Positions 23,299 through 31,762 of a DNA stretch of 32,000 nt are shown here, piece by piece. The stretch lies in assembly GCA_038889235.1 (NCBI GenBank), contig JAWAHN010000003.1, forward strand, positions 413,703-445,702, in the 5' to 3' direction. Numbering within the stretch: the stretch's first letter is position 1; each line of letters starts with the position of its first letter. The notes beneath the pieces were generated by a model. That model had not been told where the DNA came from. It made no database searches and was given only the letters and a program-made list of their open reading frames with translations. Origin of the DNA: Candidatus Jordarchaeales archaeon. Lineage in GTDB: Archaea > Asgardarchaeota > Jordiarchaeia > Jordiarchaeales > Freyrarchaeaceae. Both the position numbers and the translations under genes were made by a program.

Positions 23299-24579
23299 TT
23301 AAACCAGCTGGTTGAGCAACTCTAGTAGTTCTACTACTTCGATTTTTGACCCGCTAGCGTTGACGGCGTCTCTCAGGTTCCTGACGCAGAACGGGCAGGA
23401 AGTCACTATGGCTTGGGCGCCTGTAGCCTCTGCTTCTTTAACTCTCTCTATGCCAGTCCACAGCGCGAGGTCGGGGAACTGGGTCTTAACTCCACCACCC
23501 GCTCCACAGCACCATGCGTCTTCCTTTATTCTGTACATTTCGACTAGTTGTAGGCCAGGTATTGCCTTGAGTATTTTCCTCGGAATCTCATACCACTCTT
23601 CTTTCTTCCTCTTGATCTCCCTCTCGTCGAGGAACCAGTTCGTGGACTTGGCTAGCTCCTCGCGTTCAAGATCGAGGGCTATGTGTCTCATGAGGTGGCA
23701 TGGGTCGTGCCAGGTTACCTTCTTGTTGTAGCTTCCCTTGAACTTTATCTTGCCCTGACCTATCAGGTCTGCTACCAGCTCGATAGTGTGCTTCGGAGTG
23801 AACGGCAGCTTGGATTTACTGTACTTGGGGTAGTCTACCTTGAATGTCCTGTAGCACCCGGCGCAGCTGAACACGAGCGTATCATAGTCCTTGAACGTCT
23901 TAAGGTTCTCGTTCATAACTCTCTTAGCCTCACTCCGCTGCCCCGTTCTGAAGAGCGGGGAGCCGCAGCAGACCTCGTCTTCGAGCACCGCGAACTCTAT
24001 TCCAAGCTTGTTCAAAAGTTCAGCGGTCGCCTTAGCGACCTGCTTCTCTCTGTATGAAGCGGTGCAACCGACGAAGTATGCGACTTTGGCATCCTTCTTG
24101 GGCTTGACCTTTGTTCCTTCAAGCCACTTAGTTCTATCCTCGTGTTTTTCAGCGTACGGGTTGTTAACCTGACTTATGTTCTTGCCTAGAGCAGCGGTCT
24201 TGGGCAGTAATGGGATGCCCGCCTCGACACAGGCCGCCCTCGCAGCCTCAATAAGCTCGACGGTGGGCAGCTTGTTCTCGCACTGCGCCTGGCAGTTGCC
24301 GCATGTAGTGCAGGGGTAAATTAGGTCTCTCACACTTTCACTTGGTACAAGGCTTCCTTCAAGCATCGACCTGATAATCCACATTCTTCCACTGTTTAGG
24401 TAGCCTTCCCAAAGCTTGTAGTAAGATCCAGAGGGGCACCCTTCTATCATTCCTTCGTAAAGCGTGCCTTTGTACTCTCCGATGCCCTCCCTGTCTGGTT
24501 CTCCTGAGTAGGAGAACATGCATGCTTTGCAGTGTATGCACCTGAACAGTTCCTTCTTTAATGCTAGTAGGTCTTCCAT
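23299..24579 (-). CDS. HdrD/GlcF-like Fe-S oxidoreductase (2x[4Fe-4S] plus two CCG domains)
   Basis: CIHCKAC...CP, CTTCGNCQAQC, YFVGC, VCCGSP, FSCAGC, WHDPCH, CCGAGGG, TSCPFC. Start placed at ATG 24579. TATA-like AAAAAGTTTAAAAA lies upstream. Confidence 0.85.
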   Translation of the reverse strand: MEDLLALKKELFRCIHCKACMFSYSGEPDREGIGEYKGTLYEGMIEGCPSGSYYKLWEGYLNSGRMWIIRSMLEGSLVPSESVRDLIYPCTTCGNCQAQCENKLPTVELIEAARAACVEAGIPLLPKTAALGKNISQVNNPYAEKHEDRTKWLEGTKVKPKKDAKVAYFVGCTASYREKQVAKATAELLNKLGIEFAVLEDEVCCGSPLFRTGQRSEAKRVMNENLKTFKDYDTLVFSCAGCYRTFKVDYPKYSKSKLPFTPKHTIELVADLIGQGKIKFKGSYNKKVTWHDPCHLMRHIALDLEREELAKSTNWFLDEREIKRKKEEWYEIPRKILKAIPGLQLVEMYRIKEDAWCCGAGGGVKTQFPDLALWTGIERVKEAEATGAQAIVTSCPFCVRNLRDAVNASGSKIEVVELLELLNQLV

Positions 24580-24953
24580 TTCGCCATCCCCACGATACAT
24601 TAATTTAGTTTATTTTTTAAACTTTTTGTTCCGCACAGAGGGGGTTTTCGTCTCTCCATCGAAGAGTACTGGATATAAATTTTGTGTCGCAACCCCCTTG
24701 CAGGCAGCTTCTTCGAACATATTAACCCTAAAAACGTGGACACTACTCCACTCTAACCCAGCCCTCTTTAAGAACCACCTGCTGGTTTTTCACCCAGTCG
24801 CTTCGCGTCAGCCGTTGAGGGCGCTGCCGTTTGCCGCTCCCGCCGCCACATGTTTTTCTCTACAAGTTCTCCGTTTTAGCCTGCATCGACTTGAAAAAGC
24901 GCAGCCCTAACTTGCCTCTGCGACACTATACTATGCGGGGCTTGTGTATCTCG

Positions 24954-26522
24954 TCATCCTAGGCACTTTCTTATTTTTGCCGCTTCGTAGAGGTATCTTC
25001 GCGCTTCCCCGTTGTTTTCTTCCAGGTAGGATATGAGGAAGTTGTTTATGGTGTTCGCGTGCTTTCTCTGGGTGAGGCTCCTAGGCCCCACTTTTACTTG
25101 CAGGTAGTTTTGGGCTACTTCTATGTCTTCGAGTATCTTTGTTATGGCGAGGGCTAGCTTTTCCTCTTGTGCCCCGACTTTTCTAGCTATTTTCGAGCAT
25201 GCCCCGCTGATGGCGTTTATGTTTTCGTATGATAGGTGTTCCGCGGCTGTTTGTACATCGTGTTTAAGGTTGACGTAGTACATGTTTAGCGTGTCCCATT
25301 CTTCCTCGTTCAGGTTTTCCAGCGCCCTTAACCCTATGAGTTCGGGAGGTATTCCTAGCGTGTAGAGTGCTGCCGCGAAAGGTATGGCTCTTGGTAACGT
25401 AACGCCGCCTAAGCTTCTACTGTAGCCGAAAAGCCCTATGTGAAGTTTTCTAGACCTTCTCTTTGGGACAAGAGATGCAACGTCGTTTATGAGTGATGCT
25501 AAGTTTGTTACAACCTCCTGGTAGCTTGCCTTGAGTTTTTGTATCACGCTAATCAAAATTTCTTCTTCGTGTGGTTCTATGACCTGCTGCTTGCCGTAAG
25601 GTAGTAGGGTGTTGAGCGATTTCACGGTTTTCTTGACCTCTTCCAACGGGTGGTCGTATTTTAGCGCCGACTGTATTGTTACGGTGCAGACCCCCTTATA
25701 CTCTTCGAGAAAGTTTTTGATGTTGTTAGGCGAGAGGTGCCCCCTGAAAGGCAGTGTTCCAACGCCTATTATGGGGTATATCGGTGTCCCCGTCTCCTCC
25801 TCCACTCTCGCAAGCATTGAAAGAGCTATCTTGGAGAGAAGGACTGCTGGTATGATGCCATAGTTCAAGGCTGGATCGGACCTTGCGAGGAACGTTCTGA
25901 GGTAAGGCGGGTGAACCACGTTGATGTATTCGGCAACTATCTTGTCGGCTCTCAGGAGGCTTTCCATGTCCTCTATTAAGGGGATAACCTCTATGGTCGG
26001 GGGTTTGAAGCATCCAAGCCAGTCCACCACCTTCACTGAGTCGTCGAGTTCTATTTCCTGTATTCCGGCGACTGCTCTTCTATAGTAGTTGTAGAGCCAG
26101 AGTAGTTCTCTACCATTCGTGGTGAAGGGAAGTATGACCTCGAATATCGGTGTTACCTCCACGTTGTAGAATTTTGATGAGACATCGAAATTTACGGGTA
26201 TGCTCGCAAGGCTCTCAACTATGATCTTCTTTTCGGCTTCTTCGACCCTCGGGTTTGGAAGCCTGTAGGTAAGGAAGATGTCCCTTCCGATCACGTTTTC
26301 CCTGAAGTACTCTCCGTAGTTGAGGAGGAGTTTTCTCATCACATGGGTGTCGACGTCCTTTCCCTCAGCGTCCCACATGACCTCCTGGCATCCAAGCTCG
26401 CTGAAGGCGAAGAAGGCTTCGTAGACTTCGTCCTCTCCCTCGAGCACCTCGCCTTTACACCACTGGGGGACAGTAGCATTGTCCGGGTGCTGGGTTGACA
26501 TTGTACGAGGTATAACTCTCAA
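24954..26522 (-). CDS. ppcA: Archaeal-type phosphoenolpyruvate carboxylase
   Basis: IPRTMSTQHPDN, EVMWDAEGK, FEVILPFTT, IEVIPLIED, FLARSDPALNYG, GTLPFRG, LHIGLFGYSR, LPRAIPF. Start probably TTG 26522 (the ORF extends to 26555). Confidence 0.95.
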   Translation of the reverse strand: MRVIPRTMSTQHPDNATVPQWCKGEVLEGEDEVYEAFFAFSELGCQEVMWDAEGKDVDTHVMRKLLLNYGEYFRENVIGRDIFLTYRLPNPRVEEAEKKIIVESLASIPVNFDVSSKFYNVEVTPIFEVILPFTTNGRELLWLYNYYRRAVAGIQEIELDDSVKVVDWLGCFKPPTIEVIPLIEDMESLLRADKIVAEYINVVHPPYLRTFLARSDPALNYGIIPAVLLSKIALSMLARVEEETGTPIYPIIGVGTLPFRGHLSPNNIKNFLEEYKGVCTVTIQSALKYDHPLEEVKKTVKSLNTLLPYGKQQVIEPHEEEILISVIQKLKASYQEVVTNLASLINDVASLVPKRRSRKLHIGLFGYSRSLGGVTLPRAIPFAAALYTLGIPPELIGLRALENLNEEEWDTLNMYYVNLKHDVQTAAEHLSYENINAISGACSKIARKVGAQEEKLALAITKILEDIEVAQNYLQVKVGPRSLTQRKHANTINNFLISYLEENNGEARRYLYEAAKIRKCLG

Positions 26523-26658
26523 CTTGACAAACACCAACTTAACTTTTACCTTCACTGAAAAATTGGGGCAATATAAACCTTATTATGTAAAATGATTGTT
26601 GGGCAAAAACAACATAAAATTTTACAAATGTAAATATTCAGCTGCAACCTGCCGAGTA

Positions 26659-27978
26659 CTACCGCGCAGTCTTTCTTAGAAGCTCGACCGCCTCGCTGAG
26701 GGGTATTTGTTCGTAGCGCTTTTTTTCATCCCTCAGGTAGACTGTCACGGTTCCAGTTGACTCCTCTTTCTCCCCGACGAATACCAGGGCGCGTATCCCC
26801 TTCTTCTCCGAGTACTCAAGCTGCTTCTTGTGGCTTCTCCTCATAAGGTCCACTTGAGTCTTCAATCCCTCCTTTCGCATCTCTTCAGCAACTTTGCGAG
26901 CGTAGCCTTTACACTTCTCATCCAAAGATATGACGAAAACCTGTGTACACGTTTTCTTTTCGAGGCTGAAAAGCCCCAACTCCAGCCCGGCGTCTATGAT
27001 CCTCTCAAGCCCTATGCTCACACCCGTCGAGGGAGTCTTAGGACCGCCGTAGCGCTCTATGAGGTCATCGTATCTTCCTCCTCCCGCCAGTGCGCCTATC
27101 CTAGGCTCGTCCACGTAGACTTCAAGTATTGGCCCGGTGTAATAATCTAGCCCCCTCACCATGCTTAGGTCGAGCACTATGTTGTTCTTGTGACTAGAAA
27201 GGTCCATTAGTTCACGCAAGTGTCCGACCGCTGTCCTAACGTTGGCGTTACGCCCAAATTTGTCCTCCAGCTCGTCGAGCGACTTTTCCGGGTTTCCCGA
27301 AACCCCCACGGTCTCCATTATCTTTTCGACCTCAGCTTCCCCCAGCCCTGCCTTGAGTAGCTCGCCTCTCACCCCACTCTCCCCTATCTTCTCGAGCTTG
27401 TCTATAGCTCTGAACACCTCTAAGACTTTCCCTTCACCATAGCGGGAAATGTTGAACTCCTCCTCGAATATACCTTTCAAGAGGCGTCTGTCGTTCAGTC
27501 TTACTCTGAACTCCTTGTAGCCGAGTGATTCCATCACGTCACACACGACATCGACTATCTCAGCGTCAGCTTCAGGGTAGGGTGATCCGACTATGTCCGC
27601 ATCACACTGCCAGAACTCCCTGTAGCGCCCCTTCTGGGGCCTTTCATGTCTCCAGACGCGGCCAATGTGGTACCTTTTGAATGGCAGCGTTGGAGGGTTG
27701 CTGGCGACAAACCTGGCAAGGGGCACTGTGAGGTCGTATCTGAGGGCAAGCCACTCGCCGCTCCACGGGTCCTGGAAGCGGTAGAGAAGCTTGGATTCAA
27801 CCTCCTCCCCATACTTGCCCTTCAACGTCTCCCAGTACTCTATTGCGGGTGTCTCCAAAGGGTCGAACCCGTAGCGTTCAAAGACGTCCTCGATCACACT
27901 TATAACTCTCTTCCTTAAGAGGAGGACTTCTGGGGGGAAGTCTCTGAAGCCGCGGGGAATACTATACCTGGTCGACAC
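26659..27978 (-). CDS. hisS: Histidyl-tRNA synthetase
   Basis: PRGFRDFPP, LRYDLTVPLAR, WRHERPQKGRYREFWQCDAD, RGLDYYTG, GGGRYDDL, GVSIGLERI. GTG start at 27978 follows a GGAGGTG RBS; the longer ORF runs into the tRNA. Confidence 0.97.
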   Translation of the reverse strand: MSTRYSIPRGFRDFPPEVLLLRKRVISVIEDVFERYGFDPLETPAIEYWETLKGKYGEEVESKLLYRFQDPWSGEWLALRYDLTVPLARFVASNPPTLPFKRYHIGRVWRHERPQKGRYREFWQCDADIVGSPYPEADAEIVDVVCDVMESLGYKEFRVRLNDRRLLKGIFEEEFNISRYGEGKVLEVFRAIDKLEKIGESGVRGELLKAGLGEAEVEKIMETVGVSGNPEKSLDELEDKFGRNANVRTAVGHLRELMDLSSHKNNIVLDLSMVRGLDYYTGPILEVYVDEPRIGALAGGGRYDDLIERYGGPKTPSTGVSIGLERIIDAGLELGLFSLEKKTCTQVFVISLDEKCKGYARKVAEEMRKEGLKTQVDLMRRSHKKQLEYSEKKGIRALVFVGEKEESTGTVTVYLRDEKKRYEQIPLSEAVELLRKTAR

Positions 27979-28048: not shown

Positions 28049-28197
28049 GGTGCCGGGCGGGATTCTCGTGGATTGTATCCAAGTCGAACCCGCGACCTCG
28101 GGACTGCATGCACACGTGCTTTGCTGCCCCGACCTGGGTCCACAGTCCCGCGCTGGTGGGGCTTCCTACAGCTCTCCCAGGCTGAGCTACCGGCACC
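28049..28197 (-). tRNA. tRNA-His(GUG) with introns at 22/23, in the anticodon loop (35 nt) and at 59/60
   Basis: Exons assemble to G(-1)-GTGCCGG TA GCTC AGCCTGGGA GAGC G CGGGA CTGTGGA TCCCG AGGTC GCGGG TTCGACT CCCGC CCGGCAC C (74 nt plus G-1). G-1:C73 is the His identity element. Inserts at 28155-28173, 28104-28139 and 28063-28082. CCA is not encoded. Confidence 0.88.
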
Positions 28198-28271: not shown

Positions 28272-28685
28272 TTACGTCCCGTTTTCACGCTTTTCTTTTG
28301 AGTTGCCTAGTATGCTCCTAACTTTCTTGACTGTCCCCCTAAGCTTCTGGAGCATTAGCCCAAGCTGGTGTTCGGGTATCCCTGCGGCGACCAGTATCAC
28401 TTGACCAGCTTCCATGGCGATGATGAAGCCCTTGGTCCCGTGTACTATACACTCTGTCACATCACCCTGGATGAACGCTTTAGAAATAAGGTTGCATGCG
28501 GAAAAAAGGCTGAAAGCGCTCTCTAGGGCCTTCTCCGGGTCAGAGTACTTGAGCCTTTCAACTACCATGTTCCCCGAGAGGTCCAACACTAGGATGTCGA
28601 CATTTCCTGGGTAGTTCTCGTTCTTCAGGAGAGTATTCAATTTCTCTGCAATCTCCCTACTTATGGGACTAGCGCGCTCTATCAA
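28272..28685 (-). CDS. Roadblock/LC7 (LAMTOR2-like) domain protein
   Basis: Helix, ILVLDLSGNMV, helix with AFSLFSAC, ECIVHGTKGFIIAMEAG, ILVAAG, and QLGLMLQKLR match the roadblock fold pattern. Start probably TTG 28685. Confidence 0.75.
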   Translation of the reverse strand: MIERASPISREIAEKLNTLLKNENYPGNVDILVLDLSGNMVVERLKYSDPEKALESAFSLFSACNLISKAFIQGDVTECIVHGTKGFIIAMEAGQVILVAAGIPEHQLGLMLQKLRGTVKKVRSILGNSKEKRENGT

Positions 28686-28881
28686 GGTTTCCTCGCCTCG
28701 GAAAAAGAAGGGGCTACAAGAACACCACACACTGAGAAGCGGTGAAATATAAAGATTCTAGTTAAGACATACATTTCTTCAGCTTTGGAGCCCAAGGGGG
28801 TTCCATGCTTCTTCACGGAGGAGGAAAAAGAAATATTGAGGATAGCGCGATGTATCAGCAAGAGGCACGGAGGAGAGCGAT

Positions 28882-29370
28882 TTGGGTGCATTCGCTCCCG
28901 GTGGTCTCGAAAGCGCGGCAACGCTTCCGAAAAATATCTTGAAATACTGCATGCAGTGCTCGCTGTGCTCGAGCGTCTGCCCCACAGCCCGCCTCGTCAA
29001 AGAGTTTAACCCTAGACGCATAGTTTGGGGAGCGATCCTGGGTCTCGAGGATGACGCTGTGGAAAACGGCAGCGTGTGGTTCTGCCTTAGTTGCCACCTC
29101 TGCTCCGAGGTATGCCCCATGAAGGTGAAGGTTTCAAGCCTGATGACGTTCTTCAAAAACCTGCTCGCTGAAAGGGGGAAAATCCCAGAGGGGGTCCTAC
29201 AGGAGGCGAGCATGATTTTCAAGACTGGGAGAGGGGTGCCATACTCGCCCGCCGTCGAGAAGAGGAGGGCTTCTCTATCGCTTCCCCCACTTCCACCCGT
29301 TGACATCGAGGAGATTAAAAAGCTGCTGGGCAGGCTGAAGCTACCGATCGAGGGAGGAGAGGGGAAATGA
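28882..29370 (+). CDS. hdrC: Heterodisulfide reductase subunit C paralogue
   Basis: CMQCSLCSSVCP and WFCLSCHLCSEVCPM. TTG start follows a GGAGG RBS. ATGA overlap with the next gene. Confidence 0.88.
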   Translation: MGAFAPGGLESAATLPKNILKYCMQCSLCSSVCPTARLVKEFNPRRIVWGAILGLEDDAVENGSVWFCLSCHLCSEVCPMKVKVSSLMTFFKNLLAERGKIPEGVLQEASMIFKTGRGVPYSPAVEKRRASLSLPPLPPVDIEEIKKLLGRLKLPIEGGEGK

Positions 29371-30239
29371 CGGATTATTCGCTCTTCTTGGGGTGCATTA
29401 TCCCCTTACGGTTCCCCTTCCTTGAAGCGTCCTCGAGGAAAGTGCTTGACCTTCTGGGCGTGAGGTGTGAAACGCTTAAGGGTGCAAGTTGCTGCCCCGA
29501 CCCTGTTGGCGTCCAGTCTGTTAGCTTCAAGGCGTGGCTTTACATTGCTGCTAGGAACCTAGCGCTCGCCGAGGAGGAGGGGAGGGACGTTTTGACTCTT
29601 TGCAGCGGGTGCTTTGAGACCCTTAAGACCGCCAGGGAGATTCTGCTGCAGAGCCCCGAGCTCATGGAGGAGGTGAACGAGGCCCTAAAGAGCATAGATA
29701 GGGAGTTTAAGGGGGAGGTAGACGTCGTGCACCTAGTCGAAGCTATATACAGAGTTGGGCCCGGAAAGGTGAGAAACATGGTTGTGAGGGAGCTAGACGC
29801 CGGGGTGGCGGTTCACTACGGGTGCCACTTGTTGAGGCCAAGCGAGCACCTTAGGTTCGACGACCCGGAGAACCCGAGGAAGCTGGATGAGCTCGTCGAG
29901 GCGCTCGGTGCCCGGAGCGTTGAGTACGAGTACAAGCACCTGTGCTGCGGGGCGACTGTGGGCAACGTCAAGAGGGATTTAGCCCACGAGTACGTTAAGT
30001 GGAAGCTTAAGTTTATCGCTAGATCGGGGGCGGAGTGCATGGTTGTAGCCTGCCCCTTCTGCTTTGCGCAGTACGACCTTGGACAGGTAGAGCTCAGTAG
30101 GAGGGGGGAGAGGTTCAACCTGCCAGTCTTCTACTACCCTGAAATGCTCGGCCTAGCTTTAGGTTGCAGCTATAGGGAGCTTGGGCTACACATGCACAGG
30201 ACGAGCGTGGAGCCCTTCCTGAGAAAACACATACTTTAA
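29367..30239 (+). CDS. hdrB: Heterodisulfide reductase subunit B paralogue
   Basis: LFLGC, SCCPDP, LCSGCF, HYGCHLL, LCCGA, ACPFCFAQYD. Confidence 0.92.
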   Translation: MTDYSLFLGCIIPLRFPFLEASSRKVLDLLGVRCETLKGASCCPDPVGVQSVSFKAWLYIAARNLALAEEEGRDVLTLCSGCFETLKTAREILLQSPELMEEVNEALKSIDREFKGEVDVVHLVEAIYRVGPGKVRNMVVRELDAGVAVHYGCHLLRPSEHLRFDDPENPRKLDELVEALGARSVEYEYKHLCCGATVGNVKRDLAHEYVKWKLKFIARSGAECMVVACPFCFAQYDLGQVELSRRGERFNLPVFYYPEMLGLALGCSYRELGLHMHRTSVEPFLRKHIL

Positions 30240-30579: not shown

Positions 30580-31167
30580 TTAGAACGCGAGCTGCAACAC
30601 GTTGTAGTACACTACGTCCCCTTGCCTGTTTACTAAAGCCATCGTGAGCTGCTTCCTCGTGCTAACTGCGAGCTTGGTGACGCGGTCGAGCTCCTTAAGG
30701 TCTATGGGGGTTCCCTCGGTAACAATGTATATGAGGTTCTTCGCCACTTCCTCTCCAGCCTTGCAACCCCTCGGGTATAACCTGAAGTCTATTCCGCCGC
30801 CGAAGCCCTGCTTGACAACATACCCTCTGCTCCTCAAGTCCCTGTAGACGAGGTACCGCACCCAGACTTTTGGATCCCTTTTACTGAAGTGCTTCACAAG
30901 GTCGCGGAACGCGTACTCCCTCCCTTCTTCGTCCTTAACTATGAGTCTTCCACGCTCCACAAGTAGCAGGGCTTCAACCGGTGTTAGGTGGAGCTTGCCG
31001 TCGCCTTCAAACTCGCCGTAGCTACCTTTCTCGTATATCTTTCTGCCCTCCTCTTCGCTTACGACAACCTCGTCGTCTCTCAGCAGGCCGGAGAAGACCT
31101 CTAGTTCTTCCTCTCCTTCCTCTTTGAAGAATAACCCCTCTTGCTGCTCTTCCCTTTCTTCCTCCAT
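30580..31167 (-). CDS. endA: tRNA-splicing endonuclease subunit, probably a structural (beta-type) paralogue
   Basis: LTPVEALLLVERG, YLVYRDLRSRGYVVK, DFRLY, STRKQLTMALV...GDVVYY. The position of the catalytic His is Val. Confidence 0.88.
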   Translation of the reverse strand: MEEEREEQQEGLFFKEEGEEELEVFSGLLRDDEVVVSEEEGRKIYEKGSYGEFEGDGKLHLTPVEALLLVERGRLIVKDEEGREYAFRDLVKHFSKRDPKVWVRYLVYRDLRSRGYVVKQGFGGGIDFRLYPRGCKAGEEVAKNLIYIVTEGTPIDLKELDRVTKLAVSTRKQLTMALVNRQGDVVYYNVLQLAF

Positions 31168-31246
31168 TTAACGCCACCAGAACTTTGTTATATGGGGAAG
31201 TGTTTTAAAGTTTCCCTGCACCGAAGGGAGAAGTGGTGACCTGAAG

Positions 31247-31762
31247 TTGCTTGCCGGCAAACTGAGGGAGTTGCTTAAGGGGGCACGTAGGGTCGCAGTG
31301 ATAGGCGTGGGGAGCAGGTTTAGGGGGGATGACGCGCTAGGTCTGGAAGTAGCCAGGAGGCTTAAAGGAGCCGGGCTGAGGGGCGTGCTGGTGGTGGAGG
31401 CTGAAACCGTGCCTGAGAACTTCACAGGCGAGCTTAGAAGGTTCCACCCAAGCCACGTCTTGCTCGTGGACGCAGCGCACTTTGGAGGTAAACCGGGGGA
31501 TGTCGTCGTAGCGTCCGGCTCCTCATCCATGCGCGGAGTTTCTTTCTCGACGCACCACATGCCGCTTTCCATGTTCGCAAGATTCGTTGAGGCATCAATA
31601 GGCTCAACGGTCGTCCTGGTTGGGGTCCAGCCGGGTAGCCTCCACGGGGAGGGGCTCTCACCCGAGGTGGAAGACGCGGTGTCAATTCTCACAAAGATTT
31701 TAAGCGAAGTCCTTTCAGAATTACCGGGCTTAGAGGCGGTGTCCGAAATTGGAGAGAATTAG
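31247..31762 (+). CDS. hycI: Hydrogenase maturation endopeptidase (HycI-like)
   Basis: VIGVGSRFRGDDALG, ETVPENFT, LVDAAHFG, STHHMPL, VGVQP...EGLSPEV. Confidence 0.9.
   Translation: MLAGKLRELLKGARRVAVIGVGSRFRGDDALGLEVARRLKGAGLRGVLVVEAETVPENFTGELRRFHPSHVLLVDAAHFGGKPGDVVVASGSSSMRGVSFSTHHMPLSMFARFVEASIGSTVVLVGVQPGSLHGEGLSPEVEDAVSILTKILSEVLSELPGLEAVSEIGEN

Follow-up and report, generated by a model that had tools for sequence, protein, structure and literature searches.

A probable tRNA-His gene with bulge-helix-bulge introns at three sites in a Jordarchaeia archaeon, and a possible one-nucleotide exon within its anticodon insert

The window analysed here is a stretch of 32,000 nucleotides taken from a 470-kb contig (C3) of a hot-spring Asgard archaeon of the class Jordarchaeia. 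It contains, on its minus strand, a tRNA-His(GUG) gene that runs from position 28197 down to 28049 and is followed by hisS, the gene of histidine--tRNA ligase. Half of the tRNA gene is made of inserts: its 149 nt comprise 75 exon nt and 74 insert nt, the latter distributed among the D-arm (19 nt), the anticodon loop (35 nt), and the T-loop (20 nt). A preliminary description of this DNA, made from its sequence, had counted 74 insert nt in a gene of 148 nt and a mature form of 74 nt; the insert count stands, whereas the gene measures 149 nt and its exons sum to 75 nt in silico. The features of the locus are the following, where BHB stands for bulge-helix-bulge, H for the central helix of the motif (H* for its intron strand), h for the outer helix, h' for the inner helix, and ^ for a cut:

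28049-28197, minus strand: whole tRNA-His(GUG) gene, from G-1 to C73, delimited by in silico splicing, ARAGORN, and exons that are nearly invariant in nine variants
28174-28197, minus strand: exon 1, with G-1, the acceptor 5' strand, U8 A9, the D stem 5' strand, the D loop with G18 G19, and G22
28155-28173, minus strand: intron 1, in the D-arm at 22/23, 19 nt, BHB of HBh' type (H UGGG/CCCA, bulges AG^A and CC^A, h' GCU/AGC)
28140-28154, minus strand: exon 2, with A23-C25, G26, the anticodon stem 5' strand CGGGA, and loop bases C32 U33 G34 U35 G36 G37
28122-28139, minus strand: intron 2a, at the canonical 37/38 site, 18 nt, BHB (H CUGU, bases 32-35, with GCAG; bulges GG^A and CA^A; h' CCC/GGG)
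28121-28121, minus strand: A38, a proposed one-nucleotide exon and the third base of the CA^A bulge, placed from the register of the BHB
28104-28120, minus strand: insert 2b, at 38/39, 17 nt, which must also be removed; its motif is poor here (CAGC/AUGC, one of four central pairs, h' 3, h 3)
28083-28103, minus strand: exon 3, with U39-G43, the variable loop AGGUC, the T stem 5' strand GCGGG, and T loop bases U54 U55 C56 G57 A58 C59
28063-28082, minus strand: intron 3, in the T-loop at 59/60, 20 nt, strict hBHBh' (H UUCG/CGAG, bulges AC^U and AA^U, h' UGGAU/AUCCA)
28049-28062, minus strand: exon 4, with U60, the T stem 3' strand CCCGC, the acceptor 3' strand CCGGCAC, and C73
28221-28228, minus strand: TATA-like box UUUAAAAA, read from the sequence, its centre about 27 nt upstream of G-1
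26659-27978, minus strand: hisS, histidine--tRNA ligase, 439 aa (TIGR00442, 384 bits); the public gene call gives an identical product

Read on the minus strand, the gene begins with GGUGCCGG-UA-GCUC and ends with CCCGC-CCGGCAC-C. C73 is followed by CC-U, so that the CCA end is incompletely encoded. Once the inserts were taken out in silico, ARAGORN folded the remaining 75 nt into a perfect tRNA-His(gtg) cloverleaf, with a 7-bp acceptor stem (GUGCCGG/CCGGCAC), U8, a D stem GCUC/GAGC, G18G19, an anticodon stem CGGGA/UCCCG, a T stem GCGGG/CCCGC, and a T loop UUCGACU. An additional G-1:C73 pair is the hallmark of tRNA-His; here, G-1 (28197) lies opposite C73 (28049), and a GC pair is found at this place in six of six aligned sequences. 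The GUG anticodon sits in a seven-nucleotide loop, CUGUGGA, which contains U33 and does not vary among the nine variants. The two main claims of the preliminary description, a His identity deduced from G-1:C73 and the GUG anticodon and an interruption of the gene by BHB-type inserts in the D-arm, the anticodon loop, and the T-loop, are thus both borne out by the spliced fold and the motifs. The TATA-like box UUUAAAAA is likely the archaeal promoter of the gene, judging from the spacing usual for such promoters.

These nine variants are distinct versions of the gene, belonging to two genera, which were obtained from four related genomes, from metagenome and genome scans, and from contigs reached through hisS homologs. 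The nearest public records with the same gene are Candidatus Jordarchaeia archaeon QC4, Candidatus Jordarchaeum sp. LHC_1308, and Candidatus Jordarchaeales archaeon JZ-1, and a record from the sister genus was deposited as "Thermoproteota archaeon S9B3_HD70." In all public contigs with an identical hisS, which are DNA, the introns are present. Once spliced, the variants differ from one another at only about 6 of 75 positions, while the inserts diverge in sequence as well as in length (0-19 nt in the D-arm, 34-46 nt in the anticodon loop, and 17-24 nt in the T-loop). The 28:42 pair of the anticodon stem is compensated, being G:C in this genome and A:U elsewhere. In an alignment of six sequences, the helices named above were paired in 96.8% of cells, compared with 40-53% when the partners were slid by one to three columns.

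Each variant that carries a D-arm or a T-loop insert has a BHB motif at its boundaries. In this genome, the central helices of the D-arm, T-loop, and first anticodon motifs are all complete (4/4 pairs), and the three motifs outscored all of the ~115 other placements of the same length in the pre-tRNA. Their flanking helices are less uniform. The T-loop motif has five pairs on both sides, its outer helix being the T stem itself; the D-arm motif has three inner pairs and a single outer one; the first anticodon motif has three inner pairs and no outer one. The T-loop motif keeps its four central pairs and h = 5 in 9/9 variants, and double, compensatory changes are found at two pairs of its inner helix. 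The central helix of the D-arm motif is paired in all seven carriers, with five different intron strands. In the six-sequence alignment, both central helices are 100% paired and their changes affect the intron strand only (U-A to U-G and G-C to G-U). That pairing is kept while the intron side changes supports the view, already published, that inserts survive at places open to the action of the endonuclease. The sequence would allow any D-arm junction between 22/23 and 25/26, since both ends carry the repeat AGC, and the register of the BHB alone fixes it at 22/23; likewise, a repeated U lets the T-loop junction fall at 59/60 or 60/61. The helices and bulges that had been drawn for the 22/23 and 59/60 introns were all recovered. 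From these motifs, their conservation and covariation, and that of the exons, we infer that the inserts are spliced out, and we regard it as very likely that 28049-28197 is a genuine tRNA-His gene, interrupted at three sites by BHB introns.

The two variants from the S9B3_HD70-type genus (G004 and L046) have no D-arm insert, and the gap opened by MAFFT falls exactly at the predicted 22/23 junction. Judged by its sequence, this insert-free allele would be the nearest DNA equivalent of a natural "spliced" allele, and the nine variants together offer a clean natural example of a single D-arm site with and without an intron. In the sister family Freyarchaeaceae, tRNA-His was not located: none lies upstream of hisS, and exon and anticodon-arm patterns matched only tRNA-Leu and coding sequence. 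The D-arm insert is therefore not polarized as a gain or a loss. A phylum-wide search with the pattern CUGUGGA...GCAGYAA matched this gene only in four members of the family, the other matches being coding DNA at the level of a reversed-pattern control.

The anticodon insert is of a different build. Its 35 nt lie within 28104-28139, a span that includes A38 at 28121, in a composite arrangement of 18 nt, A38, and 17 nt. Loop bases C32 to U35 pair with a GCAG located in the middle of the insert, immediately after a small CCC/GGG hairpin. This 37/38 motif has four of four central pairs in all nine variants; its H* strand is GCAG in eight of them and ACGG in the ninth (L090), both of which pair with CUGU, and its inner hairpin covaries (CCC/GGG, CC/GG, CUG/CAG, or CCCC/GGGG). 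Moreover, all nine inserts, divergent in other respects, retain the string GCAG-Y-A-A (ACGG-C-A-A in L090). The motif is without an outer helix because 17 further nt follow A38. The three interrupted positions of the preliminary description hold, whereas its treatment of the 35-nt anticodon insert as one canonical intron does not, as the conserved BHB takes out only 18 nt. In the same genome, tRNA-Tyr has an ordinary 37/38 BHB, in which the H* strand abuts the anticodon stem, unlike that of tRNA-His. In this tRNA-Tyr(GUA) gene (C1:1059724-1059891, minus strand), a canonical 37/38 intron of 46 nt (H CUGU/ACAG, h = 5) is accompanied by a further insert of ~50 nt after the anticodon stem, and ARAGORN merges the two into one 96-nt intron.

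The remaining 17 nt, at 38/39, have no convincing BHB in this genome, in which only one of four central pairs forms and 12% of random placements score as well; the nearest variant is in the same situation (1/4, 11-12%). In the other genus (G004, L046), the 38/39 motif has a complete central helix (CAGU/GCUG, 4/4) and an outer helix CAGG/CCUG (h = 4-5), and in four Jordarchaeum variants (G001, L086, G002, L090) it has three of four central pairs (CAGU/GCUC or CGGC/GCUC) together with a covarying 4-bp hairpin. In those six of the nine variants, it beats 98-100% of other placements. In the relatives, the 3' end of the 37/38 intron provides the 5' strand of the 38/39 motif. Consequently, only one of the two motifs can form at a time, and removal of the 38/39 piece would have to come first.

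That the anticodon insert consists of two introns around a one-base exon, A38, is in our estimate close to an even chance, if on the lower side. A fuller version of this reading, which we hold somewhat more tentatively, is that the two introns abut on this single nucleotide and that the relatives form their 38/39 BHB with the 3' end of the 37/38 intron in the role of the anticodon stem's 5' strand; removal of the 38/39 intron would then have to come first, giving the 37/38 motif its outer helix. The tRNA-His gene may accordingly have four introns. To our knowledge, a one-nucleotide A38 exon, if real, would be the shortest tRNA exon known. With an enforced order of splicing, it would widen the known range of the archaeal endonuclease-ligase system, and the 37/38 intron would act as a splicing guide for its neighbor.

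The alternative is that the anticodon insert is a single 35-nt intron, at 37/38 or 38/39, in which the conserved CUGU/GCAG helix sets the 5' cut only, the 3' cut is made beside U39 at a separate, relaxed bulge-helix site, and the internal CA^A cut is unused or irrelevant. We consider this a possible, rather doubtful, explanation. It agrees with the poor 38/39 motif of this genome and its closest variant, and a 3-nt bulge AG^U39 can be drawn for the 3' site alone between CGGG/CCCG and GCA/UGC. Broad-specificity (alpha-beta)2 enzymes also accept relaxed hBH and HBh' motifs (PMC4090602), and we found no precedent for a one-base exon in the literature on archaeal and multi-BHB tRNA introns. On the other hand, a 5' cut at G37^A combined with a 3' cut before U39 leaves an anticodon loop devoid of nucleotide 38. 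A 3' cut shifted earlier by one base restores this nucleotide, but its identity among close relatives would then be G, A, A, C, or A, and no helix would support the cut. Nor does a single intron explain why the Y-A-A that follows H* does not vary among nine inserts that differ in other respects, or why the 38/39 motif is canonical or nearly so in six of nine variants and stands above 98-100% of placements. Single-intron registers with one regular motif (37/38 ending in CA^N38, 38/39 starting with GA^C, and the mirror geometry) were searched by hand and by scan, and none had a paired central helix. A slipped 38/39 register in this genome (GCA/UGC) was also rejected as a working solution, since it shifts the cut by one base and would yield a 6-nt loop. 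The reading with two introns and a one-base exon remains the one followed below.

The gene is poorly visible to standard tools, as had been anticipated. ARAGORN found no tRNA in the entire 32-kb window, and Rfam had no match there that reached the gathering score; in the local 450 nt, even a threshold of E ≤ 10 gave none. With its intron option, ARAGORN called Asp(gtc) when the D-arm and T-loop introns had been removed, and Cys(gca), Met, or Ala(tgc) after other partial removals. The difficulty extends to the whole assembly (2.14 Mb in eight contigs, 95% complete), in which ARAGORN with introns recovered 13 tRNAs and RF00005 12 above threshold, none of them on C3. Given the completeness of the genome, such a small number of matches indicates that most tRNA genes are hidden. 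Taken together, ARAGORN and Rfam recover 13-16 of ~46 expected tRNAs, and the essential tRNA-His is either invisible to both or misidentified by ARAGORN. We also searched for the other tRNA-His that the preliminary description had proposed to look for. None of the 13-27 genome-wide matches of ARAGORN and RF00005 was a tRNA-His, and BLAST with the mature sequence returned this locus only, as its own four exon blocks. A catalog restricted to candidates with a GUG loop (YUGUGR loops on 5-bp stems, with hints of D- and T-arms) contained 14 loci, and removal of up to two BHB candidates followed by ARAGORN with introns yielded a tRNA at this locus only. tRNA-His is thus apparently single-copy, with room for a divergent, more split copy or for a copy in the missing 5% of the genome.

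The invisibility of the locus to ARAGORN and Rfam might suggest a decaying, unprocessed pseudogene that has accumulated insertions, as might the part of the anticodon insert that has no good motif in this genome; a three-intron tRNA-His of Atabeyarchaeia-1 was indeed flagged "possible pseudo" by tRNAscan-SE in a published table. We find this very improbable. The exons are almost invariant in nine variants from two genera while the inserts diverge, stem changes are accompanied by compensating ones, and all changes in the intron strands of the BHB helices preserve pairing. In addition, a TATA-like box lies at the right distance, and the genome, 95% complete and with HisRS encoded next to the locus, has no other detected tRNA-His. 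The gene is therefore best regarded as very probably functional, as far as its sequence allows us to judge. That it encodes instead a tRNA-Asp (GUC), tRNA-Cys (GCA), or tRNA-Ala (UGC) with one long intron placed elsewhere in the anticodon loop, as the ARAGORN calls on partly spliced versions would have it, is hardly credible, because the junctions implied have no BHB and draw on non-conserved intron bases (the 3' end of the insert is UGCAG, UGCAA, CUCAA, CUCAC, or CUGAA), whereas G-1:C73 marks a tRNA-His, C32 U33 G34 U35 G36 G37 is invariant in nine variants, and a conserved BHB cut directly follows G37.

The genome encodes the enzymes that splicing of such a gene requires, that is, a splicing endonuclease, in the form of two EndA paralogs (PF01974), and the ligase RtcB (600 bits). 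One of the paralogs lies in the window, 2.4 kb upstream of the split tRNA-His:

30580-31167, minus strand: EndA paralog, 195 aa (PF01974 and PF02778), aligned to Methanocaldococcus jannaschii EndA (1A79)

In this protein (FRLY...EEVAK...STRKQ), the catalytic Tyr and Lys are kept and a Val occupies the position of the catalytic His of 1A79, so that one catalytic residue is missing. The second paralog, on contig C1 (L050:1192-1782), has the complete Tyr-His-Lys triad (FSVY...GIDHAP...SVRKK). Its best match is Aeropyrum pernix chain 3P1Z_B, and it also matches Pyrobaculum aerophilum 2ZYZ_B, both of which we take to be catalytic alpha subunits; the similarity includes the segment that aligns with the Crenarchaea-specific loop. 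The paralog of the window is likely a structural, beta-like subunit, and the splicing endonuclease is probably an (alpha-beta)2 heteromer made of the catalytic C1 protein and this His-less protein. Enzymes of this type accept non-canonical and relaxed motifs, according to PMC5829648 and PMC4090602.

The pathway that we envisage would start with transcription from the gene's own TATA-like promoter, possibly jointly with hisS. The precursor would then be cut at its BHB motifs by the archaeal splicing endonuclease, and the exon pieces joined by RtcB. In the anticodon loop, the 37/38 BHB would remove 18 nt (28139-28122), making A38 the first base of the 3' exon and leaving 17 nt (28120-28104) in front of U39. 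We infer from the relatives' motifs that this 17-nt piece would go first, its removal providing the outer helix that the 37/38 motif lacks.

That a pre-tRNA with several BHB motifs is processed in a set order was reportedly described by Tocchini-Valentini and colleagues in PNAS in 2009. In Cyanidioschyzon merolae, precursors also contain several BHB motifs, whose removal follows a preferred order that ends with the anticodon-arm motif (Soma et al. 2013, PMC3728597). However, each C. merolae motif can fold alone and the order depends on stability or position, whereas the relatives' 38/39 motif described here would need sequence from the neighboring intron, and a single base would lie between the two introns. 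Another parallel is provided by the Thermoproteales (Sugahara et al. 2007/2008; Marck and Grosjean 2003), for which the tRNA intron passages of PMC4090602 and PMC3978253 report up to three BHB introns per tRNA, with 59/60 among the sites, as well as relaxed hBH and HBh' motifs and a broad-specificity (alpha-beta)2 endonuclease. The alpha subunit found here has its closest matches, as noted, in the EndA chains of A. pernix and P. aerophilum. Nevertheless, Thermoproteales belong to the phylum Thermoproteota and not to the Asgard archaea, and their intron load is 1.54 per tRNA gene versus 2.0-2.4 in Jordarchaeia (10.64898/2026.10.13.758758).

The closest comparison is with the tRNAs of the host's own class, Jordarchaeia (also called Freyarchaeia or Jordiarchaeia), and of Atabeyarchaeia. 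The intron passages of Valentin-Alvarado et al. (2024, PMC11291895) indicate that 92-95% of tRNA genes in Atabeyarchaeia and Freyarchaeia have introns, more than half of them several, often at non-canonical sites. Jordiarchaeaceae and Freyrarchaeaceae have 2.0-2.4 intervening sequences per tRNA gene, with a maximum of five (Goswami et al., bioRxiv 10.64898/2026.10.13.758758); in the same preprint, D-arm inserts are those that tRNAscan-SE misses, and many gains are recent. The present gene resembles these tRNAs in its short introns at the D-arm, T-arm, and 37/38, with BHB motifs at their boundaries, in its class and family, in a D-arm intron of the kind that is missed, in recent lineage-specific gains or losses, and in the two EndA paralogs of its genome; a three-intron tRNA-His has even been tabulated for Atabeyarchaeia-1. 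Such a gene had been thought unusual for an archaeon of this kind; its close relatives are Jordarchaeum and other Jordarchaeia, for which intron-crowded tRNAs are already published (PMC11291895; 10.64898/2026.10.13.758758), and its intron load is typical of the class. According to the 2026 preprint, no Asgard insert has so far been demonstrated to undergo splicing in cells (10.64898/2026.10.13.758758). This particular tRNA-His gene is not described in the tRNA passages of PMC11291895 or in the main text of 10.64898/2026.10.13.758758, nor do these parts of the two sources mention abutting introns, a one-base exon, or an imposed splicing order. The composite anticodon insert might be the only new point of the gene.

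The gene also fills an annotation gap. The published table of the sister family's complete genome has no tRNA-His. This table, for Freyarchaeum, lists 38 tRNAs, with none for His, Cys, Phe, or Glu (PMC11291895 Supplementary Data 4). These four tRNA genes are probably hidden by heavy interruption; our own pattern searches of G006, which the coordinates of its tRNA-Leu(CAA) identify with this complete Freyarchaeum genome, did not find the one for His.

As had been stated, hisS lies 70 nt downstream of C73 on the same strand. It matches TIGR00442 and starts with GTG at 27978, with GGAGGU 4 nt upstream of this codon. No T-run separates the two genes in this genome, and T-runs occur at this place in some relatives. 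In all members of the family in which it was found, from both genera, the tRNA-His gene lies upstream of hisS on the same strand, at a distance of 68-84 nt where measured. This pairing is absent in Freyarchaeaceae and upstream of the nearest outside hisS homologs (59% identity, Thermoproteota-labeled). Co-transcription of the two genes, or a regulatory link between them, is possible in view of this arrangement. The HisRS of Jordarchaeaceae has 59% identity to HisRS labeled Thermoproteota/Desulfurococcales versus 33-35% to those of the sister family Freyarchaeaceae, a pattern that may reflect gene displacement or transfer.

Upstream of tRNA-His, a 152-aa ORF (28272-28730, minus strand) has a weak Roadblock/LC7 match (E = 0.0026; 17.9 bits, below the Pfam cut-off of 23), and the label "Roadblock-encoding" that had been given to this archaeon is insecure on the basis of this ORF alone. 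Two ORFs, 28779-29306 (minus strand, 175 aa) and 31168-31692 (minus strand, 174 aa), the latter abutting the EndA paralog, have no Pfam or NCBIfam match. An archaeal-type PEP carboxylase (TIGR02751) comes directly after hisS, and HdrB/TfrB-like CCG-domain proteins flank the locus on both sides, the ORFs of this PEP carboxylase and HdrB/TfrB-like CCG-domain group being:

24954-26555, minus strand
23299-24600, minus strand
29367-30239, plus strand
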